The notes under the pieces are model-generated. The model had not been told where the DNA came from and searched no databases. It saw only the letters and a program-made list of their open reading frames with translations. From Callorhinchus milii (Eukaryota): a DNA stretch of 64,000 nt. Location: contig NW_024704760.1 in NCBI RefSeq assembly GCF_018977255.1, positions 992,001 to 1,056,000 of the forward strand, written 5' to 3'. The position numbers were made by a program, and so were the translations under genes. This document shows positions 30,295 through 63,794 of this stretch, piece after piece. Numbering within the stretch: the stretch's first letter is position 1; each line of letters starts with the position of its first letter.

Positions 30295-30393
30295 ATGAAT
30301 TTAGAAAATCTCAGTAAGCCGGAATTGTTGATGTTCTTCAGTGTGCTTGAGGGCGAACTGGAAGCACGAGACGTTGTGATTGAAGCATTACAG
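30295..30393 (+). CDS. CTTNBP2NL: CTTNBP2 N-terminal-like protein, coding exon 1 (MNLENLSKPELLMFFSVLEGELEARDVVIEALQ)
   Basis: Acceptor tttccag ends 30287, ATG in gccaacATG context at 30295, donor GTAGGT at 30394. The peptide closely matches the recalled vertebrate CTTNBP2NL start (MNLEKLSKPELLTLFSILEGELEARDLVIEALK). Confidence 0.96.
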
Positions 30394-43626: not shown

Positions 43627-43857
43627 GCACAGCACAGAGACCATTTCATTCAAGAACGCTATGGAAAATATGACATCAGTGACCCATTCCTGGCTCTGCA
43701 GAGGGACTGTGAGACGATCCGGGAGGCGTATCGTGGTGAGAAACAGCCGGTGTGCACCAACCCACTGTCTGTACTCAAAGTGGTGATGACCCAGTGCAAG
43801 AAGATGCAGGAGCGGATGGTATCCCAGCTATCTGCTGCAGAGAGTAGACACAGAAAG
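43627..43857 (+). CDS. CTTNBP2NL: CTTNBP2NL coding exon 2 ([27 protein letters not shown]...[18 protein letters not shown]), CortBP2 coiled-coil domain
   Basis: tttcag acceptor at 43621-43626, 231 nt, phase 0-0, donor GT at 43858. Translated by hand; this frame is absent from the ORF track. Confidence 0.96.
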
Positions 43858-45017
43858 GTATCGTAAATTGGTATATGCTAAATGGATTTTATACGTGCCT
43901 TCTTCGCAATTATTTTTCAGTTTGATATTTATCCTCAGTTGGAGGGGGAACAACAATCATCGTTTCAATATTAATACTGAGATTTATATGACTGATATCC
44001 ACCAGATGTTGGCTTACATTTGACACAAGTACTGTAAATAGTTTTAACTAATTTAGTTGCACAATTCACCACTAAATGCTGGAACATGGATAAATCCCAA
44101 AGGTCCTGACGAAATAAATGCTTGTACATACGTAATCATGGTGTTTTGTTATCCAAGGATCAAGGTATTCTGAGTGCTAATGAGGTGGAATGTATTTCTG
44201 CATAGACTATACTCACACTCTTTAGTATGGTTAGAGATAATGTAGAATTTAATCAGGAAGGACAGAATGATCCAAACGCATCTGTTTTAAAAAAAAAACT
44301 GCTTTAAATATTTATGTTCATTTGTAGGCTAAAGCCAGAGCTACCAAAACTTCTCCTGGGCCTTAGGCAAGAGCAATTATGTGCTTCCCAATCCTACCTA
44401 ACATCCTTGGGACGTCCTCCCGACGTGAAAGGCGCTATACAAATGTAATTTTGTCATTGTTTCCAAAAATGAGGAATGCTTAAAGTTTGAATTGTAATTT
44501 ATTTGCTTCAGAGCACCTCTATGCCAACTCTATACATGAAAACAGCGATGAAACTACTGTCTGTCATTGTCTCATGGGTAAAAGAAACAGACACAGCAAG
44601 TGTGCAGGAATGCACAGCTGCTGTCTGTCTCCTCAGCCATGCCAATATTAGAAAGCGTAAGCTCTGTTAGGGTAGCAAACCAGACCATTCATTGTACAGG
44701 ACGGAGATTGTACAGGTGGTTTCTCAGGTTGATATAAATATCATGGATTAAAAGCAAAGTTCAGCTTTTAAATGCATGATATCTTAATGTTTCCCCATAA
44801 AACTCGCTCTAAATCCTGTGAAGTGCTTCGAGACATCGTCGTACAGGAAAGGCACTATATCAAATGTAAGGATTATTATTGCATTCACACATTTTAGATT
44901 AAATTCTGCATTTCAAGAATTTGAATCCATGCCTTGCATTCCTGTAACACAACCCTTCGCACTGTTCCCTCAGACTGGCACTGCAGCCCAAGCCAGCAGT
45001 CTGGAGAAGTGTAGTGT

Positions 45018-45689: not shown

Positions 45690-45797
45690 GTTATCCTGGA
45701 CCTGGAAGAGGAAAGGCGACGACATGCCCAGGACACGGCAGAGGGAGATGATGTGACTTACATGTTGGAGAAGGAACGGGAGCGGCTCACACAACAG
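45690..45797 (+). CDS. CTTNBP2NL: CTTNBP2NL coding exon 3 (VILDLEEERRRHAQDTAEGDDVTYMLEKERERLTQQ)
   Basis: tttttgcag acceptor, 108 nt, phase 0-0, donor GT at 45798; near-identical to the recalled vertebrate exon. Confidence 0.97.
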
Positions 45798-46949
45798 GTA
45801 CCAAAGCAGGATCCGAGCCTTCATCTCAGTTTTGTCTTGATAGTATTCAAATCTTAGTCCAGTGTCTTATCTGAAAGGCAGTCGGTCATATGTTTATTTT
45901 TCAGATGCATCTGCAAATAATCTCTTTCTCTATTACAATTGATCCTGTGGTTGGAAAGCGGAGCAACTTAACTTTTATTTGGTGGCCTTTCAGAATATTG
46001 CACGGTGGCCGTAGTAATAATAATGATGATGATCCTTGCATTTGATATAGCACCTTATCATGTTGTTGAGGCGACTCAAAGGGTATATTGTAAAGTGGCT
46101 TGACTGTGTATTTACAGGATATAGGAAAGAGAACAGTGACCCTATATTGTGAAAGAATTGAAAAGGAACTGTACTGAGAGTATTGTATTTGTGCTTCCAG
46201 ACTTCCAATCCAGCTGTTCCTGCTTCTTACCAGCTCAGCTTGTTGCATCTGCCGCTGTTCTATAGGCTGTCTGCACAATGTGGTCAGCTGCAGGTGGGCC
46301 AGCAGTTGCAGCTGTTGGCTGCTTTAGCCCACCCATGCTTTAAACAGCAGCTCTGTGAGCAGCAGCAGAAACACTGCTCTGACACAAATGCATTTGTGGT
46401 GGTGAAATGAGTTTCTGTGAACAGTCAGTAACTGGAGGGCCTCAATTTAACATCAATACCAAAATGGAGCAGTTGGGAGAAACTGTTTTACACAGGATTG
46501 TTAGCACATAGAATACATAGGAACAGGAGTAGGTCATTCAGACCCTCGAGCCTATTCTGCCATTCTGAAAGATCATGGCTGATCTGTACCTCAACTCCAA
46601 CTACCCACCTTTGCCCCGTGTCCCTTGATACCCGACCAAAACTGCGGTGGGCGAGAAGTATGCAATAGTCTTAAGTGATTTGGACAAATATTTGAGAATA
46701 AATTGTTTAAAATGAGAGTGGGGGCAGGCATGGAAGAGGGATTGAATGGAAGCCTATTTGAGAGCCAGCAACAGTATAAGGGACCAAATGGCCTTCTTTG
46801 TTGTAAAATTCTACATCATATGCTAGGTTTGTGGGGAGGGACAGATTATTTTAAAACCCATTTCAATCTTGCTCCTTAAATAAGTACCAGAATGAGTTTA
46901 AGGATACTGCAGTTTTGACTCCAGTTTGTTTTCTGATTGTTCCTTTCAG

Positions 46950-48692
46950 CTGGAGTTTGAGAAATCGCAGGTGAAGAAGGTAGAAAAGGAACAGAAGAAG
47001 GTCTCCTCGCAGCTGGAGGAGGAACGATCACGGCACAAACAGGTTACCGCGGTGCTGATGAAAGAGTGCAAGAAAGCAACCAATAAGGCAGCAGAAGAGG
47101 GGCAAAGAGCAGCCGAGATGAGCGCAAAGCTGGAGAAGGAGAAAAGCAAGAGCACTCGGCTGGAAGAGGAACTGGCGGCTGAGATCCGGAGAGGCTCGGG
47201 GAGGGAAGCCCAGATGGAAAAGCAGCTCTCGGAATTTGACACTGAAAAAGAGCAGCTCCGAGCAAAGCTGAACCGGGAAGAAAACCGAACACAAGCCCTG
47301 AAAGAAGAGGTTGAAAACTTGAAGAAACTTATTGAAGACATGAAGAACGGAAAGCTGTTTCCGAATGAGCCGGAACAGGACGAAGCAAGTGAGGTAACTA
47401 GTCTGCCGCAACACTTAGGGTCTGATAAATGTCCATTGGTTTCCTCGTTGTGTCAAACCGAGAGCACTTGTGCTGAACGGTCGAACGAAAGTGACGAGAG
47501 CAAGGCTGTGTCGTCAAACCCAACTGCAGTTTTTCCACGGCACGCCAAGACCAACGGGCATTGCAGTACAGCCCTGGTTAAAAACGGTGCGGATGAATCT
47601 TCTGACGGTTGTGAAATGGATAGTCTTCTCTCAACTGAAGATAAGGCAGGTTTTCCTTCTGATCAGGGGAGCATTGTCGAGAATGGAGGTTATGCCAACA
47701 ACAGTGCGACCGCACATTCTAGTGCATCTCCCAGTGGAATGCCCCTTTCTCCAAACGCCGCAATCAACTCCCCTTCCGCCACATCCTCAGGTTCCGGGTC
47801 GCCGTGCTCTTCACCGGTGTTAACGAAGCGCGTGGCCAGCCCGGGAACGTCCGGCTCGGCTTTCCACTCCTCCTACCAAGCAGGGTTGAACCAGAGATTT
47901 CACGCTGCTCGCTTCAAGTTCCAAGCCCAGGCCGAGCATGATCAGCAGATGGGGGGCTTACAGAGCCCTCCGGCAAGGGATCTGTCGCCCACTACAGTCG
48001 ACGGTTCTACTGCCAAGCAGTTGGCCCGTAATACTGTCACCCAAGTCCTCTCTAGGTTCACGAGTCAACCGGGTGCTCTTAAAACTGCAAACAACTCCCC
48101 CTTTGGTACTGATTATCGACAGTTGGGCACTTCCCCTAAAACACCGACTGGGGATCACAGTCATTCTCCAACCTCCAGCAAAGGTTCCAGTCCACAAAGT
48201 CCATTGACACCCGGGATCAAATCACCAACGATCTCGAGAGCAGAGAGAGGAACTCCTCCACCAATCCCGCCAAAAAAGCCGGGGCTTGCCCAATCACCGG
48301 CATCGCCACACCCACTGGGAAGGCCAACCACCGATGGAGGACATTCCCAAGTTGGGCAGATACCCAAGAGTGAGTCGAGTGCTTCTATTCAGTCTCAGCG
48401 TTCACTCTTCAACTCGCGCGAAACAGGGGTTCAAGAGGAACTTCCATCCAAGCCCTGCCTGGACCACAATGTAGGGAGAGGCTCCGGGGAAGGGGACGGA
48501 GGCCCAAATCGTGTAGTTCTAGTTGGGACCCCATCCAACGAAACCAATCCCACAAGCTGCATGAAGCTTTCATCAGTTTCCAAGGATGTGTGTAACGCCA
48601 CACTGGACCTCTCAACCCCCTGTGGCATGAATAGTGCTCTGATCACACCATCTGCTAAAGAGATTGATATACTACTACCAACCAGTAGTTAA
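46950..48692 (+). CDS. CTTNBP2NL: CTTNBP2NL terminal coding exon (LEFEKSQVKK...NQRFHAARFKFQ...ARNTVTQVLSRF...PPPIPPKKPG...LLPTSS*); spliced protein 726 aa
   Basis: Acceptor tcctttcag ends 46949, in frame with ORF 46926..48692. Contains the diagnostic CTTNBP2NL motifs and LLPTSS C-terminus, with no ankyrin repeats (so not full-length CTTNBP2). Confidence 0.97.
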   Translation: MEFEKSQVKKVEKEQKKVSSQLEEERSRHKQVTAVLMKECKKATNKAAEEGQRAAEMSAKLEKEKSKSTRLEEELAAEIRRGSGREAQMEKQLSEFDTEKEQLRAKLNREENRTQALKEEVENLKKLIEDMKNGKLFPNEPEQDEASEVTSLPQHLGSDKCPLVSSLCQTESTCAERSNESDESKAVSSNPTAVFPRHAKTNGHCSTALVKNGADESSDGCEMDSLLSTEDKAGFPSDQGSIVENGGYANNSATAHSSASPSGMPLSPNAAINSPSATSSGSGSPCSSPVLTKRVASPGTSGSAFHSSYQAGLNQRFHAARFKFQAQAEHDQQMGGLQSPPARDLSPTTVDGSTAKQLARNTVTQVLSRFTSQPGALKTANNSPFGTDYRQLGTSPKTPTGDHSHSPTSSKGSSPQSPLTPGIKSPTISRAERGTPPPIPPKKPGLAQSPASPHPLGRPTTDGGHSQVGQIPKSESSASIQSQRSLFNSRETGVQEELPSKPCLDHNVGRGSGEGDGGPNRVVLVGTPSNETNPTSCMKLSSVSKDVCNATLDLSTPCGMNSALITPSAKEIDILLPTSS

Positions 48693-51600
48693 TCCACATA
48701 GAAATCAAATGTGAGTTTTTTTTTTTCCTTTTGATTTTTTAGATTCGAGACACATGAAGCATTTTTGAACCGATCGGATCAAAGATAGTTATTTATTATG
48801 TAGCTTTATATTGCATTTTGTACTTGTACAATATTCACTTTAGTGAACTGTATATCCTCGACTTGTTAATCTGTTTTAGGTTCCTAGATGTTTCTGTTGA
48901 AGCCAACTCTACTACATTTGATGCTTAATACTATTTTGTTGTGATTAACCCATAACTTGTGGCGTAACCACTTTGTAAGACTGATGGGTCGTGCATGGAG
49001 TTAGTTGATGATGAAAAGTTGCTGCAGGTTTTGTGAGCGTTTGTGACTTATTTTCTGGGCCCCACATCTCACAACCGGTTCTGTGGAGTGGAGTGTTCCT
49101 GTACTGTGAAATCCGCATCTGACAATCGCGGGCTTGAGCCTCACCAGATGGATAGTAGGTACAAGAAACTCACTGCGAGCTTCCCGCTGGGCAAAGTACT
49201 TCACAGCTGGAATTCACCATCATCTACAGCGACGATGTTCTGAAGACAACCGTGTTTTTTGTAAGCGTATAAGTCCCGGCCGTAGAATAGAACAACTGAA
49301 GTATCAAAAAGACCCGAGTAATATTCTCTCTTGATATGATTGATGGTTCATAAGCATCAGTGGTCAGCACAATATCCTTGTTATCAAGTAAATGTAATGT
49401 TCATGGTGGTAGGACCATTCTCCATAGCTTGGCTTGTGTTCAGTTGCAGGCATTAGTATGCGGAGCGGAAAAAGCAAGGCGTAGAAGAGCCGGCATTATT
49501 TATGTATAAAGCTATAGGACCCCGGGGAGAGTTTGTAAAAAATTATGCTGCCTGTGTCAATGGCAAAGTGTTTATTATACAGCTGGGAGCCAGGCTATTG
49601 AAGCAACTTGTGCCCTGCAGTTTATGGCTTCTCATATTCCTTCGATTTGTTTCTCAGCTGCTAAAGTTGTACGTTGAGACATAAGAAGGTTCTATTTTGA
49701 TATTGCCGGGAGGGCAGAAACTCCAAATGCTATTTTGCTGGTAGTCTTGTCCTGCGATTTATCCAACCTAATGATCGACGCGATGTTCTATCCCATTCGA
49801 TTTCAGCTCGAATTCAATTCGAAGTGTAGGCTATTTCAGTTTAGTGCTTTGTGCCTGTGTCTCATGGGTTTCCATGCAGGGTGCAAGCTTGCTCAAGGCA
49901 GTGACTAAAAACCTGTTGAAAAAATCCCCAACTAAAGATGTATAAAGCTGTGACAGCTTGTCTGTACATCAGCTATTTTATAACTAATCTGCCACTTTAT
50001 TCTGAACTGTTACTTAGCAATAATGCATGCGCAATTCAGTGGCAATTCAATTATTCCACACAAGTGAGTACCTCAAAAATAAAACCTAACCAGCCAGTGG
50101 ATAGAAATTAACGGAAATAATAATAATAATCCTTGCATTTGATATGGCCACTTATCATGTTTTCGAGACGTCTTCCGCTTCACGGAATATACTGTAAAGT
50201 GTGGTTACTGTATTTTGTGGGTGAAACAGCCAAAAGATTGCTTTCTTTTAAAAAAAAATACAGTGAAAGGTTTTAGAAATAATAGCTTTGTGTGGTTGAG
50301 GGATGGCATTGGCAAGAAAGCTTTACATTTCTATTAATTTCACCACTGGCTGCCTGACATGAAGCTGTTACTGGTTCCATTGTTCAAATAACAAATTCTG
50401 AAATATTCTTTGAAAGCATTGACGCTCGTACAATATAAATCGTGTCTGCCTCAAAATCAATCAATCAATTCTTAGCCTCGCTGCTTGCTGGCTCCTGGAA
50501 CTTTGAGTAGTGCGTGAATACAAGGAGCCTTTTTCTTAAGGATTTGATGACTTGATTTGCCAGTTCTTGGCAACCTAGTATTTAAAGCCTCCTGTGGCAT
50601 TGCATTTTAATATCCAGTGAGCTGCTCATTAGAGCAAAACTAGTCGACAGCAGATTTGTGGCTTTTCAGTGACTTTCAGGCACCGTGATCCGTGCATTCC
50701 ACGATATGGATTTATGACTCTGAGGTAGCATTGAAAAAACCCATCACAGCAAGTGACTGAAACATTGTATAAGTGATAAATTAGATTAAAATGCCGTGTG
50801 TATGTTACTGTTCACATCATGCATGTTCTATATAAGTATTTGGTGACTTTTTTAAACCAAAAAAGACTTTATTGTGGTGGTACTTATTTCCTCCAAGCCA
50901 AAGCAATACCTGATACTAGTAGGTAATAGGGGTGACATTTTAGTGCTGTATTGTTGGGATCCTAAATAGCCCAGGATGGTACCTATGTTCAGTAATTCCC
51001 AGGACCACTCTCTTGGAGTAATTAGAATAATGGTGTGACTGCAGTGCTGTGACATTGATGTGTAATGACATCTACAATGAAAGATTGACTATTGTGATAT
51101 GATAATGGCTGAAGGTTTACGGACTGTTAATGACTGAGAATGAATGTATGTGTGGAATATAAGGCAGTAATTCATTATTCTGATGCCAATTTGTAAGGTG
51201 TACAGTTGAGTAGCGTTGGGGTGAGAATAATTTCATTTCTGCTTTAAATTGACTGCCAGTTTTTTTTATACATCATGTTGGTTATTTAATATTTTTTTAA
51301 AAAAAACTTTGTTTGGGGTTACCTTAGTGCGGGGCTGTGCAGTTCAGATGGATTTGTGCAGGTGAAAGGGTGATGATGAAAGTAGCGGAGTTGTGAAACA
51401 ACAATGAGTGGCACAGTATATAAAATATTGGGAATTCCTGGTTTGCGTTGGGTTACCAAGCCTACGATCTATTTTCTTTTGCAACACTAGGTAAATGGGC
51501 TATTTTATAATCAATTAAAGGATCCAAAATATCAGTTTTTCAGTGCACACGATCAAATGTACACGTGTAGCTCTGGTTTCTTATAAACGGTTTTATTATC

Positions 51601-54600
51601 CAGTGTTTTTTTTAAAAAATCTTCGATACACTGTGATATATTGAATATATTAGGCCCTTGTCTTAGTACAGTCGTGTTTAGAATGGTTTGTACATAGGAG
51701 TGATTATTGTAGTTCTATTAATAGAAGTACTGCATTTTTTTTAAAAAAAGATTCTATTGATAGATTGCTATTATTTTGTTTGCTTTTTAACTGCAATTTG
51801 TTAAAATGTCCACTTGATGATTGGACAGAACACTGGGGCCAAATGTTGCACAGATTGTGGTGCTGAGGTGTCCGGGATGTCAATTGCTGACTGGAACCAG
51901 TCAGTGGTCTTTGCCAACACCTTATTCCTGCCATATTAATCGTACTTCATATCATAGGAATTTTTATCTGAACAACTATAAATCGTAGCTCTTGGTGATG
52001 GGAGGAGCAGTAAAGGATTACCAAATGGATTCATGATTTGGTGAAAAATATTAGTTCAACACACACTATAAACCTGTTGTGGTAGACTACTGAGAGGGGG
52101 AGATTGAACCTGTGCCATTTTCTGTAGGTTTTGTAGATACTGTTATCCCTTTTGTGCTGTACACACACAAGAGATCTTGAAAGAACTTCCGGCTAAACTT
52201 GCAGGGGCGGGGAGCGTGGGGGTGCGAAGGGAAGGGTCGGCGTACTCTGGAATGAAGCTCCCACCCCCACCCCCCCGACCATGCGCATAATTTTATTTTT
52301 TTAAAAGGTTTAGATCAGCTTTTGAAATCTTCAGTAAAATGGAATACTTTATAAATTTGGGGAGTGTGCATATCAGCTGAAAGCAATCATTCAATCGTTT
52401 GATAAGTATGATAACATCACAATGAAGCTATCTTCTTACATGACATATCCATTACTGTACAGAGAAAATGTTTTCCCCAGCAAAGGGTTGATTGAAAATA
52501 CATGTGATGAACACTAAGGTTACAGGATCGTTGGTAGTGCAAATACAATCTTCCAGTTGTGTTTGAAGAGAATTTTGATCTTTGTCCTAGCATCATTGAT
52601 CGCTTGTTTTTCTTAGAAGACTGGCTGTGATTGCAGCATCTGTTGTCCTTCTCGATGAAGCGTTGCTCTCTCCCTTCGGGAAGGGAGAGCGCATTAAGTA
52701 TGAAGAGGTGAAAGGTGCTATGTAAACGTAAGTTTGTATTGAATTGCAAGTTTCTAGCAGAGGTTTTCAGAACAACATTGTTGAATTAATTCATGGAAGC
52801 AAGTCGACAGCAGTTTATATATTGCATGTGAAAACTGATTAAGAGTAGGGAGAAAACATCTTCTAGCTGCTACCTGTAAAAACGTGCACGTGTATGTAAT
52901 GCCTGTGTTTTTTTTATATAAGATTGAAATAGGTGCCTCTGTTTGTGCACTTGCCTTATTGTAGGTGGTGTGTGATTGTTGTCCATAGGAGATCCTGGAC
53001 ATTTTTTTCCACTGTGCGAGACTACCGTCCGTCTTCTTTCTCACCATCACTACTCATCCAATCTGAGATCCTCCACAGACTAGGCAGGCATGTTGTCCAT
53101 CTTACAGCGTGAGTAAGCTGGACTGAGACGGAGCTAACAGCACACTAACCCATTATATCCCACCAGGTTAATTGTATGATTACTTCTGGAGAATTTATTA
53201 GGCAACGTTAAGCAAGATTTGTGAAGTGAAAATGTTTTACCTGCCAAAATCTCCCTATATGGAGCATTCCTATCAGAGGGAAGAAAGAGAGAGACTGCAC
53301 TTATTAAATAAATGACTTTTTTTTACTAGTTTATTTAAGAAAATAAGTCTTGGGCTCTGGTATGAACAATGAACATCTGTGACCCTCGCTCCCACCGTTT
53401 GAATATAAACAATTTTTCTGACGTTCTGTCAATAACTCAATTAGCCGCAAGTACCATATCCAGGTTTGGTTTAATTTGATAACATGGAACGTGTCTGTAA
53501 AGTTGAAGGTCTTTGCATATCTGAGTGAGGGAATTGGCTACAATTCTGCATCTTTCTTGAATTGACTGTTTGCTCTCTGAGGTTATTTCTGTACAATCAA
53601 ATTCAAGATCCTCATCCTCACCTACAAGGCCGTTCACGGCCTCGCTCCCTCCTACCTCCCCGACCTACTATCCCCCTACTTACCTGCCCGTACCCTCCGT
53701 TCCTCTGGCTCCGGTCTGCTCCACATCCCCCGCCCCAACCGCCCTACCATCAGTGGCCGGGCCTTCAGCCTCTCAGCCCCGAGGCTCTGAAACTCCATTC
53801 CCCGGTGCCTTCGCCGCTTCCTCCCTTTCCTCCTTCAAGGCCGGTCTCAAGACCTTTCTCTTTGACCGTACCTTCAGCTCCACTCTCGACTCTCTACCCT
53901 CTCCTCGCTCCCTCCCTTCCCTCCCCTCACCATTTCCCCCCAATACTCGGGTCCTGACCCAACTGTACAGCGCCTTGGGACGTCCTCCCGACGTGAAAGG
54001 CGCTCTATAAATGGAATCTTGTTGTTGTTGTTGTTCTGTCAAATCTTGAAAGGCATGATACTGGGACCGAGCACATTAGACTCCAGTCTGCTTTGGGGGG
54101 AAAATATTAATTGAGCCAATAATTGTCATCTGTCAGGGCAGAGACTAATCGAGGTGCAAATTAGAGGCACTTAAAATGAATTAAGTACTTTGTCGTTTTG
54201 GAATAATGCATTTTTTTAATCCTGTTTTTTTATTGTGTTACTAACTATGTATTCTCTAGTGGCTGCATGTTACAGTGTAATTGATTGACTGATTGGACCA
54301 ATTCATATTCCTGTAAAAGTCGACATGACAATATATTTTTAATAATTTATAATCTATAAAACTGTTTTAGTTTGGTAATATAGCGGAGTCAGTATTTTTT
54401 CACACCTAATGTACTGGATGACTAAAATCGCATGTAAATGAGTGATATTCTTTTTGTACTTTATCAATGAACTTCTTAAATGCAAAGCTGCTCTCCCTGA
54501 TAGGATTCAAGTTCTACTGCTGGGAACTTTGACTCATTCAAAATGCAACTTCAAGTGCCTTTTGGATCTGCATGCTGTAAATAATGTTGAAATGCATTTA

Positions 54601-54650
54601 TTGATATCTGATTACCATCAATCAATAAAAAAAATTCTTACCCTCTCGAC
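48693..54650 (+). other. Probable long 3'UTR of CTTNBP2NL
   Basis: AT-rich and repeat-poor after the stop codon; AATAAA at 54624-54629 followed by a T/GT-rich downstream element. An earlier AATAAA lies near 50078. Confidence 0.5.
53595..54035 (+). mobile_element. L2 LINE 3' fragment
   Basis: ATCAAATTCAAGATCCTCATCCTCACCTACAAGGCC...TTCAAGGCCGGTCTCAAGACC...(TTG)n tail. Confidence 0.9.
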
Positions 54651-56279
54651 TTGTTTCCATCTTTGTTTTTCAATATCAGTTTCTCTTTTCGCAGCAAAGT
54701 TGGAATAAAAAGCACAGACTCCCAGTTGTGTCGACTCCGTTTATGGAATGGAAAGAGAATGCCCAGTAGGGATTGCGTTACTCTTTGGTGCTTTACTTTG
54801 CAGGATTGGATGGAGGACATATCTGCTGCACCTTGAGACGTACAGGCTGGTCAGCCATCAGTGATTGTCGAGAAACTTCCTTGTTTTTCTCCGCAGTGTC
54901 TGAGCCATTTTGACCCAGGGAGAATACCTGAATACCCCTTCCAATTCTGTTTCCCTTCCATCTCTTTGTCCAGGTCCATTTTTGGTCAGGAGGGTCATTA
55001 AATTCCACCCGCATAGGAATTTTAAATGACATCCATTCACAGTAATTGTCTTCCAGCTTTTCACTTTAGAAAATGAGCTCTTCAAGATAACCTTTGGTCT
55101 TTGAAACTGGAATCAGTGCATGGTGTTTCCCTTGTAAATGCAGCTTTTGAACATTTCCATACTGATTCTAGCCGATTGTGAAGCTTGAGCTTGTTATCTC
55201 CCGACTCGGAGGCAAGATTGCAACCAACTGCACCATATGAGGAGCTCCCTTGCGTAAGTGGGACATTTTGTACAGTTTAGTGGTGAACCTAACATATCTC
55301 TTCACAGAGAGTACTCAGTAACACAATGTACAAATCAACCATCCCTCTGGACTGATTTATAACCTAATGTAGAAACTCTCCCCCAAAAAATTTCTAAATT
55401 GGGGTTGTGGATTAATCCTCTGGTCCGGTTGGTTCACGGGTGGGTTATTTAGGGATTGGGGAAAAGAGTGGTTTCATTGTTGAGTCTGCTGTGAGTTGAG
55501 AACTGCGTAGTCCTGAGTTATTTTCCTCTCAGCGTATTCTTTCCCAAGTTCGTTTGTTCAGGTACAGTGTTATTTACAGAATGTTTGATTTATGACATCT
55601 CCCATTCATAACAATGGGAAGTGTGTTAGCAATGTGTTCAGCGCAGGCAGTAAGATTTGATCATTACGTTCACTTTGAAGTATGATACATGTTATGCCAA
55701 CATTGTTTGATTTACTTTTCCATTCTTCATGCTTTGGCCCCGGTTCCTTGCCTTGCTTATTGCGCAGATTTTAAGAAATCTGTCTTAAAATTTTGTGTAA
55801 AATCCCTTGGGGTTTATTTAATTCAGCAATGTGCACAATTATTTAATTCAGCAATATTTGTCTCTAAAATACAGTATTTCTACCCTAGACATCACTGTGC
55901 CTTTGTGCCTGACATTGCCTTTTTTAAGTCGTTTTGAAATTGTGTTCTTAAAAGCAGAAAATAGGAACATTAGAACAGGAGGAGGCCATTCAGGCCCTCT
56001 AGCCTGTTCTGCCATTCTATTAGATCATGGCTGAACCCACAAAATGTCCAACTTTGCACCCCCTCACGTGGAATTGCCGTCCCCTAATTATATTTCCCAA
56101 CCAGTCACCAAGTGATCGATCACAATCGCAATCTAGTATGTAGGAGACTGCATTTGATCACCTTTATTTAATTCAGCAATATTTGTCTCTAAACTAGTTC
56201 TGGGTTGCTCTGTGGGATCGATCAGCCATTGGGTGAATAGGTGTCCATCAAGAGGAAATCAGCTTTGACACAGTTCATG

Positions 56280-56304
56280 ATGGGCAACATTTTCTACGGA
56301 CTCG
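56280..56304 (+). CDS. Orphan gene, putative coding exon 1 (MGNIFYGL-)
   Basis: ATGATGG: the second ATG has a strong Kozak context (A at -3, G at +4). Donor G|GTAAGA at 56305 is phase 1, matching the downstream acceptor. Confidence 0.55.
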
Positions 56305-56402
56305 GTAAGAGATTTAAGGGATGTTTATTTGGAAATATAGGATGTTTGCGTGAAAGATTGCGATAAGATTACAAAAACAAATGTTTGTGCCTCTCTTTGC
56401 AG

Positions 56403-57058
56403 TCGGTCCAAACTACAAATGCTGTAGAGATAAAGCCAATATGATTGAGCCTCGCCTTAAAGGACAATCAACCGTCCGTATCTGTTCACAAGGGATAGGG
56501 TTCAATCCGAAGTGCAAAGTCCCTCTGAGCTCGGCAGGCCAGACCAGCACTGGAAGGCCAAGTGCAACTTCCAATACAAGCCAAGGGACAGGGTCAACAG
56601 GCACTGGGAGCCTTTCACTGACCACTGTCCAAAGCCCTGGTAATGCCCTTGTGCCACCTGCTAAAAAGCCACGCTTGAGCACCACCAACACCTCTGTGAC
56701 AACCACCACCAAGAGAGTTTGGGTGACCAGCGCTAAGAGTCCCAGAGTGACCACTGTCGGGACCTCCCTGACCACCACTGTTCAAAACACGTCGACGACC
56801 ACTATTAACAGCCCCAACGTGGCCTCCACTGGAACTCCTCAAGCCACTATCATCGGGAACTCTAATAGAATAGTCATCGGAAACCCTGTTAAAATTGGTA
56901 CGACAAATCCAAATAGGAGTGTGGTCCGAAACCCTGACACTGCCTCCGTTAAAAGTGCCAACATAATCAATATCACATACCCTTTCCAGTCTTCTAGTGG
57001 AAACCATAAGGCCACAACGGGGAGGTCCAAAACAGTGGCCAAAAGGCGGTTGATATAA
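56403..57058 (+). CDS. Orphan gene, terminal exon: Cys cluster plus Thr/Ser-rich low-complexity protein with NLS-like PPAKKPRL (spliced 226 aa)
   Basis: Strong acceptor tgtgcctctctttgcag (ends 56402), 656 nt open frame in non-repetitive, GC-richer sequence, TAA ending at 57058, AATAAA at 57143-57148. Confidence 0.65.
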
Positions 57059-58859
57059 ACTGAGCCAAATGGCTGACTTCTCTGCTGAAAATACGTGTTC
57101 TGTACTTTAATTTTATGTGTGTTGTTTCTTGTGTAACTCAAGAATAAAATGGAGTTCTCATTGTCTGGAATCCCTGGTCTACAGTTTACAGAGTTAGATA
57201 TATAGTGTGGGTGAGCGGTTGAGGCTTACAGTTGACCTCAGACCCCTGGTAAATTGAGCACAATCATGTAAGGATTATTATTATTATTATACCAGTGCAG
57301 TGAATGGCATTTTAGATTGATTCTCCAATTGATTAATAGAGGACAGGCATTACTATTACTGAGCAGCACAGTCATGAAAGTCGATCTCAGTCCAGACATT
57401 TGCCAAGACCTTGCTCGACTGTCCAGGGGAAGGCAGCTCAGCAGCGAGCATGTGGCCTCAGATGACAGGATGTGCCGTGCTGTTACAGCAGTAAATGGCT
57501 CCTCCTACACCTCGCTTCCTTTATAAATTGCTTTCAGTCTTTAATTTGCCCAGTTATTCTATGTGTAAATCTCCCTCGATTAGATTCAAACCTGAAACTC
57601 ACTGCTGTGATCAGTTATTCTCTCTCTCTATATATATATATATGTGTATAACCCCCATTCCCCACACCTCTACTGTATGCCCCCACCCCTCCCCATTTAA
57701 TAATAATAATCCTAGCTTTGGATGTAACGTCGGTGAGGTGTCTCAAAGTGCTTCACAGAATGTATTGTAAAGTGGAGTGACTAGGTGAAACGCGGCAGCC
57801 AGTGTAAGGACCAGAACAGACGGCTGGTCCCGTCTCCTGCTCTCACGACCACCGGAAAAGGTTAGATGTGAACGCAATGAAGGGGTTTAGCGGGAGGGAA
57901 GAAATCGATGGGCTGAATAACCGGTCCTCGTGAGGCATCGGAGAGAAGCTTAAACGTTCTGCTCGTCAGCAAAGTCCGCAATCCAGTGCACCCGCACCGC
58001 GGATACGCGCAGATCTAAGGTGTTGAAATCGTTTTTTAAAAAAAAACCTTATTTGTATAGGGCCCAATCACGTAAAAGAAAAAATAACGACAACAAATTA
58101 CATTTGTATCGCGCTTTACACGTCGGGAGGACGTCTCGTATCGCTTTTCTCAAATGAGAGCGACTGGAAATGGAGTGAATGTTAGAGAGGCAAAAACGAT
58201 AGCGATATCCGAAGAGCCACAATGAGCCGAGCGGCCGGTGAGTGAGAACTTTCAGGATGAATTTGAATGAGGAAGGGAAACACAAACCAAGATCACTAAA
58301 GTGGGGGACTTCCACTTTGTATTAGCAGAAAAGCCCCCTTCACGGCCACCTAAGTCTTTCAACGGTGAGACCTTGATTAATGACTCACTGAAAAAAAAGA
58401 GATGCTAATCTGGAAATAAAATAATTCCCTTGTATTTAACAAAGCCTGTTATGTAGACAAACTCTGGGTTGTAAGGAGCAAACGCACAAGACTGGTTGTG
58501 ACTGACTGGGAGCCAGAGATATTTCAAGGACCAAGTTGGACAGTACCACGATGGGACAAGCTTAGAGGAAAGAGAGAGAGACAAGCAGGGAGGTGCCAAT
58601 GAAAACAAAACCGGGGGGGAAAGTTCAACAAAAACATGTACTGATATCTCATGTTAAACATCGTCCCACAGCCATTGTGTAAACAGAATGCACAGTGAGA
58701 AGCGCAGACTGGCCAGTTCGCTCCAGTCAGGACCAAAATCTTCTCGTAAAATCGTAGAAGCAAAGAAATGACAGCCCAGAAGGAAGCCATCAATAACCAC
58801 TGCCATGACGCAGCGCCTTGCACATAAAAGAAGCTTCTCGAAGCTACCCTACGCCATTC

Positions 58860-59122
58860 AGGAGTGGAATCAGGAGTCTATTTTTCATGCAAAGGGTTGT
58901 GGTAATCTGGACCTCTCTTCCCCACCCTCCCTCAAAAGGCTGTGGATTATGTCTGGATCTATTAAAATTTTCAAGACTGAGGTGGATAGATGTTTGTCAG
59001 GTTAGGGTATTAAGTGATATGGGGCAAAAGTGGGTAAATGGAGTTGAGGTACCGATCAGCCATGATCTAGTAGAATGGCGGAACAGGATCGAGGGGTTTC
59101 ATGGCCTCCTCCTGTTCCTATG
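58860..59122 (+). mobile_element. CR1 LINE 3' end
   Basis: AGGGTTGTGG...TTTTCAAGACTGAGGTGGATAGA...GATCAGCCATGATCT...GAATGGCGGAACAGG...GGCCTCCTCCTGTTCCTATG. Shorter matching pieces at ~19470-19560 (+), ~36808-36860 (-), ~46510-46635 (-) and ~55962-56035 (-). Confidence 0.85.
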
Positions 59123-62100
59123 AAGTACTTTATTTTCACAGAACGAGATTAATTGGAGAATAAGAAGGTAATATGACACATAGCCGAAAGTGGCTGCTGG
59201 TTTACGCTCACAAAGTCCCACAAATAATGAGATGAGGAGCCAATTCATTAGAATCTTAGGGGCGCATTTGGATGAAAAAGGAATAATAATAACCCTGGCA
59301 TTTGATACAGCGCCTTATCACATCTTCGAGACGTCTCAAAGCGCTTCGCAGAATATACCGTAAAGCGTTCGCGAAGTATGTTTCAGATACGTTCTGATTT
59401 TACAATTATAAACTCAGCAGTCTCCAGGGAATTGATGAAATCCCCCCCCCCCTTTATATCCCTGTGTTCCTAGATAGTGAGTCACCCATCAACAAAGAAA
59501 GAGTTGGCTTGAACGTGGTCTCATTTACGTGCGGCCGGTCCCACCACTCCCAGGATCTGTGCTCAGTTCCTTGCGTCCTTTTCTAGTCATTCGGGCCTCC
59601 GACTAACTAATGATACAGCTCTGTCACTGTTAGGCTGTGATTGCAAAATTCCCCTATTGTGTGTGTTTTAAAGGCTTTCTGTGTTTCATAGAGAGTGTCT
59701 GTCGTCTCACTCGGACAGTAAATCGTAATGATGAGATAACTGATACTCAGCCATCTATCCTGTGACTCACCCTTCCAGGATTCTGCACATTTACACCCCC
59801 CTCCCCACCGCCCCCTCAACCTCCGCCCCCCCCAACCTCCGCACACAGCCTGAAATACAATAAAACACACGTCTGGTACGAGACATTTACATCTCAGCTC
59901 CTTGTAGTTGGGTCGAGAAAGGGTAGGATTTTTCATAATATAACATAATAATACTTGCTTTTGATATAGCTCCTTATAATGTCGTCGAGACGTCCCCAAG
60001 TGCTTCACGGGATATACATGTAAAGTGGATTGACTGTGCATGCAAAGTCCCACAAACAGCCATGCAGTGAGTGGTCAATTTTTTTAATATCTATTTGGGG
60101 AACCTTTGGCCAGGACACCGGGAGAGGAAAAACTCGCTTCTCTTTTTAAATAGTCTCGGAGCGTTTCACAGTGCTGAGCGCGGCGAAGGGTGAGTGACCA
60201 GCCTTTAAGGTAGGTTTTATTAATAGTAATAATAATAATCCTGGCGTTTGATACAGCGCCTTATCACGGCGCTGAGACGTCTCAAAGAGCTTCACAGGAT
60301 ACGCTGTAAAGTGAATTGACTGTATTTTATATATACACTTTTTTTCTATGTACAGTACATTATATATATGTAATAGATGTATATACGGTGGTTCATTATT
60401 GGAGCAACTTTAAGTCCAGAGAGAGAAAAATATAATAATAATCCTGGCATTTGATACAGCGCCTGATCACGTTTTCGAGACGTCTCAAAACGCTTCAGAG
60501 GATACACTGTAAAGGGAATTGACTGTATTTTGTGGGCGGAACGTCGGTACATATATATATATATATTATTATTAGGTATTGCATATTTTAGATAAATATA
60601 TATAAGTATATACATATTATACTATAGTACATATACATATATATATATATATGTACACATGCTTCATTATTATCAGAGAGATGGAGAGGTATTCTCTGGA
60701 GGGCACCTCAGACAGTCTACAGCTCTGTGTGTGTGTGTGTGTGTGTGTGACAGCTCTTAGTTCCTGGAGACTGACAGAGAAAGAAAGAGAAAGGGAGAGC
60801 GAAGAATTATTCCGGGACACGGAACAAGTAGGATTTCCCAGGTCCAGGAACCCCAGGACATCGTGTTATTTGGGGAGAGGATAGGGGTGTGTGTGGGGTG
60901 GGGTGGGGGGGAGGGGGGGGAGGGGGCTGAACCCTCTTCCCCCTTTAAGGGGCGTAAAAAGAGCAAGTGGGGGGTTGGGGGGTGGCATTTGCTTTGTGGG
61001 TTTGTTTTGAAACCTTTTTGTTAACTGATCACACCCGGGGTTTGGTGGAAGGTTGGGTCAGAGAGATTTCCTGCGCCAAACCCAATCCTTTTCCTTCCAC
61101 TCCCTCCCTCCCTCCTCCTCCCTCCCTCTCCCTCCCTCCCTCTCCCTCTCCCTCTCTCTGGGATCTGATTCCCACACCTACAAGACGACAGGAGAATAAC
61201 GACAGAGGCGGACTGTGTGTGTGTGTGACATTCACACCAGGGGAGAAAAAAGGAGAGAGAAGAGAAGGGACAGAGAGAGAGAGAGAGAGAGCAAAGCATT
61301 GGCCAAAAAAAAGACTTTGAAAATAACAAACAGCTCTGACATACAATGCAGAGAGGAAATGCTGTCACACACACACACACTCTCTCTCTCTCTCTCTGTA
61401 CAATTTCCTAGATCTGTTTTAACCATTGCCACAGCCTTGTTGTGAACAATTTAATCCCTTTTCCTCCCCCCCTCTCCCCCCCTCTCTCTCTACATACAGT
61501 ATAAATAGTATGAACATTGTGGATTCTGAAATCGAGAGGACTCAGTGGTTGGGGTGAGTTTTACTTGGTATATTTTTATGTTTTCCTTGTGTGTGTGTGT
61601 GTGTGTGTGTGTTTTCTTGCAAACCCTTAATATTCTGGGTTTGGGTTTGGGTTTGGGTTTGTCCCTGGGGGGGGATCTGACTGATTGCTTCTGCTGCTTA
61701 AACCAAACAACTGGTTATATAATCAGGGGAGGACTTGCAAGGGAGAGACAGAGAGAAAGCAGACAGACAGACAGACAGACCGACAGAGAGAGATTTCCGG
61801 GTCTGCTTGTCAGACCATCAACTTACAGGGCAATGTTTTTGCTAAATGATTATTTGGCGGAAAAACGTAACACAAAACAACCCGTTTGTTGGTTTCGTGT
61901 CCAGTTTGGCAGTGAACCCAGAATTCCCAGTGTTACTGTGTGTGCGGACAACTAACAGAGATTCATGGATGGGGGGGAAGTGTGTTTTTGTTGTACTAAA
62001 TAAACAGGGAAGTGTTTGTGATTTATTTTATAGATACTTAGCGATATAATAATAATAATAATAATAATCGTTGCATTTGTCACAGCGCCTTATCACGTCT

Positions 62101-63794
62101 TCGAGACGTCTCAAAGCTCTTCAGAGAATATACTGTAAAGTGAATCGACTGTATATTTTGTGGGTGAAACACAGCACCTCCCTTTCTATCTCCGTCTGTC
62201 ACCAGGCCTTGTTCGTGCCTGTAGGAAACTACAGAGAAAAACACAAAACAACTGCTTTTCTTTTAGTTTCCTGTAACCATCGCAGCCTTTAACTTTTTTT
62301 TAAAATACAAGTATATAATTTTTTTATTTAAAAAAGGAGAGGGCAGGAGCTTGTGTTTTTTGCCTCTGGAAAATGAATTGATTACGATTAAAGTTTCCTG
62401 TTATTGGGGGCGAAACTGAACAGAAAGGGGGGCAGAGGGGTAAGTATTTACATTATTGGGGGATTATGATTGTGGTGGGGGTGGGGAGGACCTTGGGTAG
62501 TCCTCCCAACGTAAAAAGCGCTATCCAAATGTAATTTGTTTTGTTGTGAAGACTTCTGCTGTCTCTACTGTTGAATCAGGGGACAAACACCCTTAATAAC
62601 CCATTATATAGGGAATAACAGAGCCTGGGTGGAACCAATAACAGCAGATTGATTGATTATCGCCCAGGGGATCTGCACTCTATCTTGACTGACACAGCAA
62701 TCTTTCTCAAGGGTTTATTTCCAATCGTAAAATCTAAAGGTGATTGCTGGTGTGTGTGTGTGTATGTATATGTGTGTGATGTNNNNNNNNNNNNNNNNNN
62801 NNNNNNNNNNNNNNNNNNNNNNNNNNNNNNNNNNNNNNNNNNNNNNNNNNNNNNNNNNNNNNNNNNNNNNNNNNNNNNNNNNNNNNNNNNNNNNNNNNNN
62901 NNNNNNNNNNNNNNNNNNNNNNNNNNNNNNNNNNNNNNNNNNNNNNNNNNNNNNNNNNNNNNNNNNNNNNNNNNNNNNNNNNNNNNNNTGTAAAACAAAA
63001 TAGGGTTATTTTATTCCCGTTAGCGAGGAAACACAATCGGAAAGCTCTCACTCTCTCCCATCCTCCACTGCAGATTAAACGTGAAACCCCATCAATGGAG
63101 ACTGAAGTGACATAGATTGATTATTTTAGTTTTTTTAAATCGTGTAAAAAATACATAAACAGAACGGAGGAAAGAAACCTCTCAGTCCTTTCGCTGTCAA
63201 TGATTTTGCTGGATGGTGAGGGAAGATAATTATCACATCATACGCCTGATCTCAACCCCTTGCCCACCCCCGCCTGCATTTCAATGAGTCAGAGAACAAT
63301 AAGGGAAAGTAGGATTAATATTAATCCACTGAGATTTTTAGGGATGGGGGATGTGGAGAGCTGTGTTGTCAGAGACTTTGGCTGAGACTTTAAGATACGG
63401 TTTCTTTCTGTCTGTGGGTGGACAGACAAGATCCTGGGGCGCTATTGGAAAGGAGAAGAGAGTTACTCCAACAATAAACTCTCTCCCAGTACTGGACTGT
63501 ACTGGGGCATCATTCTACGTCAAGGAGCTCAAAGCCCCCCCGCCGCCATAAGTGTAGAGAGCTCCAGTGGGGGAGCGAGCCCCAGCACAGACACCATGGG
63601 GAGAGAAAGAGAGAGCAGGGAATGGGGTTGGAGTAGAGAGCTCCAGTGGGGGAGTGAGCCCCATGGGCCAAATGGCCTTCTGTGCATAATAACCATTCTT
63701 TGATTCCAAAATGGAACAGCACTCTCATAAAACTGTCAGGGAATGGAGTGGAAACGCAGCAACTTCAATGATTACCGGCAGATGTGGAGACCTC

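Follow-up and report, generated by a model that had tools for sequence, protein, structure and literature searches.

A single-copy reading frame with a hidden 24-nt repeat behind CTTNBP2NL in the elephant shark

Described systems closest to the locus

Orphan (taxonomically restricted) genes for low-complexity repeat proteins form a general class. The locus described here, from a 64,000-nt window of the elephant shark Callorhinchus milii (the whole stretch of DNA analysed; gene features lie on the plus strand), resembles this class in being short, with few exons, a disordered predicted product, an in-frame internal duplication, no annotation and no relatives. Unlike typical orphan repeat genes, it has units that share only about 40% identity and still hold one register, and its expression is only predicted. 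An N-terminus beginning Met-Gly-Asn-Ile-Phe is known from ARF1, and the predicted protein would share this start, together with the Cys pair of such SH4-type N-termini, if exon 1 of the gene model is used. It differs from ARF1 in having Tyr at position 6 and neither a GTPase nor any other domain (no Pfam family at E 1), and its paired Cys at residues 15–16 lie beyond positions 3–5, those given for G-alpha subunits. Gel-forming mucins and peritrophins likewise combine Thr/Ser-rich repeats with a preceding Cys-bearing head, and one weak match was to a protein with CBM_14 repeats; in contrast to them, the orphan product is strongly basic, has four Cys only and lacks a signal peptide or hydrophobic stretch, and its head contains no CBM_14 or other Cys-rich mucin domain (Pfam, E 10).

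The Ile/Gly/Asn-rich units of the array (56786–56929 and 56822–56905) presumably resemble the RHIM amyloid motif; RHIM was rejected as a candidate, a Pfam search of these units at E 10 having returned no family. The C-terminal triple-stranded beta-helix of phage T4 gp5 has an octapeptide repeat (PMC3004832), and this eight-residue period is common to the elephant shark array. The corresponding family (PF22178) matches array residues 21–64 weakly, at E 0.12 and 12.9 bits, below the curated cut-off of 30.9; the best matches in Pfam (E 0.12) and in the PDB (E 0.08) are both weak, and both involve microbial proteins with a beta-helix. Unlike gp5, the orphan units have Pro at position 2 in about half of the cases, two AlphaFold2 runs gave no confident beta-helix, and the context is of vertebrate intron type. 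A trimer prediction of residues 90–207 scored 0.00, which counts neither way. Only as a very unlikely reading do we consider a live gene whose 14–16 octapeptides stack as a beta-solenoid or functional-amyloid fibre, in the cell or nucleus, convergent on the gp5 helix and possibly acyl-tethered. If true, the product would be an intracellular fibre protein of a vertebrate, built from repeats and outside every known family, with units aged to 40% identity.

Gene model and RNA contigs behind CTTNBP2NL

The frame sits behind the adjacent C. milii gene CTTNBP2NL (identical match). All coordinates of the two-exon gene originally predicted here, including the start, the intron and its phase, exon 2, both stops and the AATAAA, were exact on rechecking. 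Predicted exon 1 (56277–56304) carries tandem ATGs, the first at 56277 in weak context and the second directly behind it at 56280 in strong context (A at -3, G at +4), and would end in a phase-1 donor. The predicted intron (56305–56402; 98 nt, GT-AG, phase 1) has a strong acceptor, and main coding exon 2 (56403–57058; 656 nt) runs through 217 whole codons to the TAA at 57056–57058, for a CDS of 681 nt and 226 residues. Upstream, the frame stays open as far as the stop at 56238–56240. Over 234 codons there is neither a stop nor a frameshift. In-frame ATGs also occur within the predicted intron at 56381 (weak context) and within exon 2 at 56441, and starts at these two sites require no intron. 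What stands confirmed is this DNA anatomy, splicing of the intron being predicted only.

The individual signals differ in strength. When the 4098 plus-strand AG sites are ranked by a simple score, the acceptor at 56402 falls within the top 19 and outscores all three of the real CTTNBP2NL acceptors that were examined. At 56305, the donor is ordinary (4/7, a score reached by 541 of 3789 GT sites and by two of the three real CTTNBP2NL donors), and the AATAAA at 57143–57148, 84 nt past the TAA, is at chance level, being present in 697 of 9151 random 95-nt stretches. Of 12 comparable upstream donors, five, that of exon 1 among them, close a Met-containing exon in phase 1. Further upstream, in the putative promoter or 5' region, 38-nt direct repeats (55834–55871 and 56159–56196; 92% alike) bracket a repeat fragment, and the bin 55552–56075 has very high repeat depth. 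An Rfam search of 48700–64000 returned no families, and the antisense frames of the locus contain 3–15 stops and no Pfam matches.

RNA evidence consisted of assembled contigs from four of 12 listed runs, tissue not given, and such contigs drop rare forms; six of the 12 contained hardly any of the words sought, which counts neither way. One RNA contig is shown on the frame (run X1, record 8, 56367–56969), with no differences over 603 nt. It bridges the acceptor unspliced, with 36 nt on the intron side, and comparable unspliced pieces occur in CTTNBP2NL introns in the same run. The X1 depth in the two bins over the gene (2.40 and 3.81) comes entirely from this contig, which leaves exon 1 free of X1 contigs. 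Depth in runs X2 and X7 is zero in 56600–57123, and about half of the X2 depth in 56076–56599 is not accounted for. None of these cover values is evidential, given the loss of rare forms from contigs and the unspecified tissues. No spliced transcript across the intron was seen in the RNA contigs, among the 15 of 2350 joints listed; since the joint table is swamped by SINEs, a 56304–56403 joint may be hidden.

These contigs bear directly on the membrane-anchoring half of the original prediction, in which a two-exon mRNA encodes a protein myristoylated at Gly2, palmitoylated at Cys15/16 and shuttling between membrane and nucleus. A strong-context ATG, Gly2, a phase-matched intron and the Cys pair (56420–56425) are all consistent with it. 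The whole proposal depends on exon 1, however, and the joint to 56403 is unseen while the contig crosses the acceptor unspliced. Gly2 is present only with a start at 56280 and the intron removed; it is absent when translation begins at 56277, 56381 or 56441 instead, and the other Met-bearing donors compete with that of exon 1. Tyr6, already flagged as atypical, departs from the signature MGXXX[ACGST], which calls for a small residue at position 6; the same source adds that Phe, Arg, Asn and Val are tolerated there (bioRxiv 10.1101/2020.08.25.266692), and on the strength of Phe an aromatic residue is not excluded. An acylated, membrane-anchored product appears quite unlikely, and this half of the interpretation was not sustained, in contrast to its restricted, disordered frame.

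The acceptor and poly(A) signal would also be accounted for, without exon 1, by an alternative last exon of CTTNBP2NL running from the consensus donor GTGAGT at 48711–48716 (located 18 nt past the stop of CTTNBP2NL, and a candidate to pair in the forward direction with the 56402 acceptor) to 56403 and ending at the 57143 AATAAA, with the frame untranslated or a second cistron from 56441. This donor matches the consensus in full, and 48710 is the exact end point of RNA contigs in X2 and X7. Against this, no 48710–56403 joint is present among the 15 of 2350 joints listed, contig sizes favour a back-splice from the same donor, and the retained frame would be left unexplained. The CTTNBP2NL coding donors examined are phase 0 and the 56402 acceptor is phase 1, so an in-frame fusion is not available either. 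We regard such a last exon as highly improbable.

A hidden repeat and codon periodicity in exon 2

The length of the orphan frame alone is not above chance, but its structure is. An open frame of at least 217 codons arises in 63 of 100 simulated 64-kb windows; among local shuffles, an equally long one is found in only 1–9 of 2000. The codon-position chi2 of the frame is 63.4, whereas 550 non-coding windows of 651 nt reach 26.2 at most and 2000 simulations conditioned on an open frame reach 26.6 at most; it also exceeds that of three CTTNBP2NL slices (15–40). The first 56 codons of exon 2 are without codon periodicity (chi2 5.4).

The Thr-rich tail noted in the original prediction is present, but its main feature was overlooked and is new in the present analysis: a degenerate tandem array of about 14 units of 24 nt, or 8 codons (56690–57025, limits set after inspection of the data). 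Pairwise identity between units is about 40%, in a single register throughout, and the array stops 10 codons short of the TAA, so that array and ORF end together. Tandem Repeats Finder (TRF) at score 30 failed to detect it. Period 24 in the array is the strongest period among 1086 windows and the best of 18 lags; three stretches were each shuffled by codon 600 times, and no shuffle matched it. In a leave-one-out test, offset 0 gave the best fit for 12 of 14 units, and a profile scan of 55000–58000 placed its 16 best matches all inside the ORF and in the same frame. Two repeat-like units upstream of the array (56609–56656; scores 10.8 and 5.9) are offset from it by an in-frame 9-nt shift.

A non-coding minisatellite offers another account of these units, in which a 24-nt repeat, a multiple of three and stop-poor by luck, decayed neutrally and the surrounding signals arose by chance. 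Several observations are compatible with it: long frames, the donor and the AATAAA are all common by chance, the first 56 codons lack periodicity, a stop-free outcome was also obtained in 10–14% of neutral simulations of the array, and pN/pS between units (0.79–0.84) is not clearly under the neutral value of 0.92 ± 0.09 (P 0.05–0.19). However, the array has taken 69 substitutions or more (146 at most) with no frameshift, whereas 6–13 frameshifts would be expected (P 2e-3 to 2e-6 for none) from the neutral indel rate of 27 SINE alignments in the window (70 frameshifting indels per 775 mismatches), with the caveat that minisatellites may lose indels differently from SINEs. Third codon positions are the most diverged (inter-unit identity by position 0.46, 0.40 and 0.35), and neutral simulations give less conservative inter-unit exchanges (P 0.015–0.028). 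The shared end of array and ORF also speaks against neutral decay, as does a flank control: among 20,483 overlapping control positions, only 8–21 combined a comparable acceptor and a start exon with an open flank of 95 codons. A minisatellite origin is judged quite unlikely.

The strong hidden repeat without frameshift, together with codon periodicity, implies that exon 2 is coding now or was until recently, and units only about 40% identical but held in one register suggest that the array is of great age. Besides a live gene, one rival account is a coding relic, that is, a recent pseudogene or orphaned last exon crossed only by CTTNBP2NL read-through or pre-mRNA and still intact because the genome is slow. 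A relic would reconcile coding-type periodicity and register with the missing annotation and the unspliced contig; CTTNBP2NL RNA contigs reach 54643–54744, less than 2 kb upstream of the frame, and C. milii proteins evolve slowly, according to PMC3964593. The 234 codons without stop or frameshift and the intact acceptor, donor, ATG and AATAAA argue against decay, and we consider a relic unlikely, if less so than neutral repeats. A live gene of any kind has, in our estimate, slightly better than an even chance.

Copy number, homology and the predicted product

DNA depth over the frame is 8–9, like that of unique exons, whereas SINE bins reach thousands or more, and at 92% likeness the frame is single-copy by depth. 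In a second DNA data set one contig spans the locus (56006–57688), with 5 other letters and 4 gaps of unseen position. Flanking SINE fragments and the weak beta-helical microbial matches could point to a piece of a gene from a transposon or an endogenous virus, the kind of match that had been named as refuting the orphan gene. No such match was found: besides the single-copy depth, there are no terminal repeats around the locus and no element domains, Pfam and PHROG searches gave no family for the product, and relatives were found in 0 of 33 viral and 0 of 394 metagenome candidate contigs. An origin of this kind seems extremely unlikely.

The family remained unrecognised, as originally reported, throughout the searches. 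Pfam returned no family for the 217-residue exon product at E 1 or for two head segments at E 10, and the ESM Atlas gave no usable match. Protein searches detected no self-match, though annotated C. milii proteins were in the searched collection and the genome project drew on poly(A) RNA from ten tissues including testis and ovary (PMC3964593). They also detected no relatives among annotated sharks and rays with listed CTTNBP2NL proteins, and no homologue outside the lineage, a result that is weak for low-complexity sequence. Five phmmer matches (Sushi, CBM_14, Ig-like, a kinase with repeats and one unnamed) were discarded, being sums of weak similarities within repetitive proteins of unrelated families. 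Literature searches yielded no description of the gene among the papers listed.

The 226-residue model contains 27 Lys and Arg, 3 Asp and Glu and 66 Ser and Thr, with four Ser/Thr-Pro sites and, besides the Cys pair, single Cys at residues 36 and 46. It has no hydrophobic segment, and its best 19-residue hydropathy of 0.5 indicates no signal peptide. AlphaFold2 models (pLDDT 40.5 and 43.6; single-sequence runs, which are often poor) contain two strands only, and the low pLDDT fits disorder. Together with the periodicity and the absence of a homologue, this backs the original view of a lineage-restricted, mostly disordered, unannotated coding frame. The classical monopartite nuclear localization signal has the pattern K-K/R-x-K/R. 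The KKPR of the NLS-like motif PPAKKPRL (56654–56677) conforms to it, as originally proposed, but a basic tetrad also arises in 18% of 5000 codon shuffles; with a preceding Pro the figure is 2.4%.

Our preferred explanation, to which we give somewhat less than an even chance, is a lineage-restricted gene with narrow expression, whose product would be a basic, disordered and probably nuclear repeat protein. Such a gene would be unannotated and narrowly or weakly expressed; it would be confined to the chimaeras, or else have diverged too far for relatives to be recognised. The main exon may have been enlarged through internal duplication of the 24-nt unit, the units then diverging while selection maintained an intact frame. 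Depending on the start site, the product would be a strongly basic, largely disordered protein of 205–226 residues rich in Ser, Thr, Asn, Val and Ile. A nuclear role is proposed because of this composition and one common motif: the basic motif might mediate nuclear import, after which the repeats could bind nucleic acid, chromatin or each other, weakly and multivalently, with binding tuned by phosphorylation or O-GlcNAc on the many Ser/Thr. Lipid anchoring would not be required. Counting against this explanation are the unspliced contig with no spliced transcript seen, the lack of a self-match or relative, the near-neutral pN/pS and stop-free neutral simulations, and the chance frequency of frames of this length. 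If expressed, this would be a new repeat protein.

The genome of the elephant shark is a reference for early jawed vertebrates, and genes absent from its annotation bias claims on the gene content of cartilaginous fish. The locus also illustrates how a homologue-less gene can be tested from a single sequence, through the question of whether the repeat units inside it have stayed in frame. As a separate observation on the adjacent CTTNBP2NL, RNA contig sizes point to a back-splice from the 48711 donor, with 48710 presumably joined to 30288, and imply a 2206-nt circle that probably holds the entire CTTNBP2NL coding sequence; for RNA biologists, this probable circle may be of greater interest than the orphan gene.

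Candidate gene structure and read evidence 3' of CTTNBP2NL

The plus-strand frame lying 3' of CTTNBP2NL is, as predicted from its sequence, probably an orphan gene, and its exon contains an octapeptide repeat that is old. The gene coordinates originally proposed between 56280 and 57143 were all borne out: a candidate start ATG in strong context at 56280 (with a second, weak ATG 5' of it at 56277), a predicted 98-nt GT-AG intron in phase 1 (56305-56402), a 656-nt main exon (56403-57058) ending in TAA at 57056-57058, and an AATAAA poly(A) signal at 57143. The two-exon model encodes 226 residues. The 5' neighbour is CTTNBP2NL, which in mammals is presumably followed by WNT2B. Its last exon matches the Callorhinchus milii protein CTTNBP2 N-terminal like b (NCBI) at 100% identity across 579 residues, which identifies the window as elephant shark.

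The length of the frame alone is unremarkable: simulation produced frames of at least 217 codons in 63 windows out of 100, although low-complexity blocks inflate this null; in local shuffles such frames arose in 1-9 of 2000. With simple ad hoc scores, the acceptor ranked within the top 19 of 4098 AG sites and the donor was equalled by 541 of 3789 GT sites. An open 95-codon flank combined with a comparable acceptor and a start exon was found at 8-21 of 20,483 control positions (overlapping and non-independent). Of 9151 stretches 95 nt long, 697 contained AATAAA. That the main exon is instead an alternative last exon of CTTNBP2NL is very unlikely.

Read evidence consisted of contigs from 4 of the 12 listed runs, three of which (X1, X2 and X7) behave as RNA because their contigs join CTTNBP2NL exons. 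The sole RNA piece on the frame among the contigs listed, X1 record 8 (56367-56969, 603 nt, 0 differences), begins 36 nt within the predicted intron and runs over the acceptor unspliced, and no joint splicing this intron occurs among the 15 joints listed of 2350. Other unspliced X1 pieces lie in CTTNBP2NL introns (44430-44876 and 46161-46399) and at 55020-55380, so that pre-mRNA, read-through or DNA can explain record 8, which speaks against splicing in the X1 sample only. In a DNA run, the whole locus is contained in one contig, which over 1683 nt differs at 5 letters and has 4 gaps. Its unique-sequence depth argues against a young transposon, and origin from a mobile element is most improbable. 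At 55028-55551, DNA depth is approximately twice the unique level (15.7 versus ~8), with additional X1 depth, which suggests a low-copy repeat or duplicate.

A degenerate 24-nt repeat in the main exon

Autocorrelation of the main exon peaks at 24, 72, 168, 96 and 48 nt. Laid out in eight-codon rows, 56690-57025 comprises 14 units encoding approximately Asn/Ser/Thr-Pro-x-x-Thr-Thr/Val-Val/Ile-Gly/Lys, with two additional units 5' of the array offset by an in-frame 9-nt shift. The array was not detected by TRF. Its period is the strongest of 1086 windows of 336 nt, offset 0 is the best fit for 12 of the 14 units, and period 24 exceeds 600 of 600 codon shuffles in each of three stretches, including the whole exon. 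Codon-position bias in the exon (chi2 63.4) compares with maxima of 26.2 across 550 non-coding windows and 26.6 in 2000 open-frame simulations, and with 15-40 in three CTTNBP2NL slices; it stems from the repeat tail, the first 56 codons reaching just 5.4. Among the non-coding windows, the top codon periodicity (chi2 22-26) belongs to a minus-strand open frame of 264 codons (18207-18998) that overlies SINE sequence.

Units are 40-42% identical (0.46, 0.40 and 0.35 by codon position, lowest at the third). Their exchanges are more conservative than in simulations of neutral decay (P 0.015-0.028), but between-unit pN/pS is only marginally low (0.79-0.84 versus neutral 0.92 +/- 0.09, P 0.05-0.19); stops were also absent from 10-14% of neutral array simulations. 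A neutral minisatellite is an improbable account of the array. Across 27 SINE alignments of the same window (self-match and alignments <100 nt dropped), 70 frameshifting indels accompany 775 mismatches; at that rate 6-13 frameshifts would be expected in the array and 0 were observed (P 2e-3 to 2e-6), with the caveats that the array limits were set post hoc and that tandem arrays may treat indels differently from SINEs. This kept register is the firmest sign of coding history in the array. We conclude that the exon evolved as coding sequence and are less sure that it is coding at present, a coding relic being unlikely.

Predicted product and search for relatives

The frame belongs to no family tested. 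No relatives were found among 633 candidates of 119-380 residues or 6709 of 381-2000 residues, nor was there any Pfam, PHROG or Atlas match, viral or metagenome locus, exact record in the protein collection for the frame from 56441, or description in the literature searched. Homology search with the 56-residue start of the main exon likewise yielded no true relative: phmmer against 1.84 billion representatives returned five weak matches, rejected as summed weak scores to repetitive proteins of unrelated families. The protein collection includes this species' proteins and lacks a self-match, and the genome project, according to the accessible part of its report, covered ten tissues, testis and ovary among them, in its poly(A) RNA sequencing (PMC3964593). 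A live gene would thus have to be rare, confined to certain stages or passed over in annotation.

The predicted product is strongly basic, with 27 Lys+Arg to 3 Asp+Glu; it has 66 Ser+Thr, includes four S/T-P sites and lacks hydrophobic segments. AlphaFold2 runs without alignment gave pLDDT of 40.5 and 43.6. On the favoured, still tentative reading, it would be a soluble, intracellular, disordered protein whose basic motif would mediate import, and whose repeats would make many weak contacts with nucleic acid, chromatin or one another, tuned by Ser/Thr modification. The original prediction instead combined a nuclear signal with a lipid-anchored N-terminus (Gly2 myristoylation, Cys palmitoylation) translated from a two-exon mRNA; its orphan gene stands as probable, whereas the membrane anchor is doubtful and the full scheme rather unlikely. 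It requires the intron junction absent among the joints listed, its start has competitors at 56277, 56381 and 56441, and a Met-bearing phase-1 exon is also available from 5 of 12 comparable upstream donors. Tyr6 departs from the signature MGXXX[ACGST], although Phe is counted among tolerated position-6 residues (accessible part of bioRxiv 10.1101/2020.08.25.266692).

The C-terminal AKRRLI (57041-57055) resembles a cyclin-docking RxL motif, presumably of the kind in p21 and p107, without the usual subsequent Phe or Leu. The array shares its eight-residue period with the T4 gp5 beta-helix, as described in the available text of PMC3004832. The best matches, far below cut-off, were beta-helical (PF22178, E 0.12; an O-acetyltransferase, E 0.08), and a beta-solenoid or amyloid might be entertained as a distant lead.

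CTTNBP2NL transcripts and flanking features

A consensus donor lies at 48711, 18 nt 3' of the CTTNBP2NL stop. X7 record 25 (2236 nt) is circularly permuted, with ends overlapping by 30 nt, and X2 record 11 (2206 nt) has an end at 48710 and its position 443 at 46947. The exons 30288-30393, 43627-43857, 45690-45797 and 46950-48710 sum to 2206 nt and match all three contig numbers exactly, which implies a back-splice from 48710 to 30288. These lengths and offsets point to a probable 2206-nt circular RNA containing the entire coding sequence, with 7 nt ahead of the start codon and 18 nt beyond the stop. Both runs fall under one study code, and tandem duplication may alternatively produce such contigs. 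A circular RNA is named at cttnbp2nl in the accessible part of PMC10148060.

The CTTNBP2NL 3' UTR spans ~6 kb (48693-54744), with RNA contigs ending at 54646 (X1), 54643 (X7) and 54744 (X2), just past AATAAA at 54624 and 54704; this is a weak hint, from one study code, of tandem poly(A) sites. Acceptor-like sites at 54803, 54896 and 54973 (scores 14, 17 and 16) cluster immediately beyond (54785-54973), the first resembling the orphan acceptor at 56402 in 15 of 19 nt, and possibly mark additional terminal or 5' exons. At 55813-56196, a 38-nt direct repeat (92%, copies 325 nt apart, third copy partial) flanks a repeat fragment just 5' of the candidate start and may represent a local duplication or a long target-site duplication. 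Less than 1 kb past the poly(A) signal, a CpG-rich stretch (57800-58250; observed/expected ~1.1 in 58000-58499) may be a regulatory element belonging to the gene that follows.
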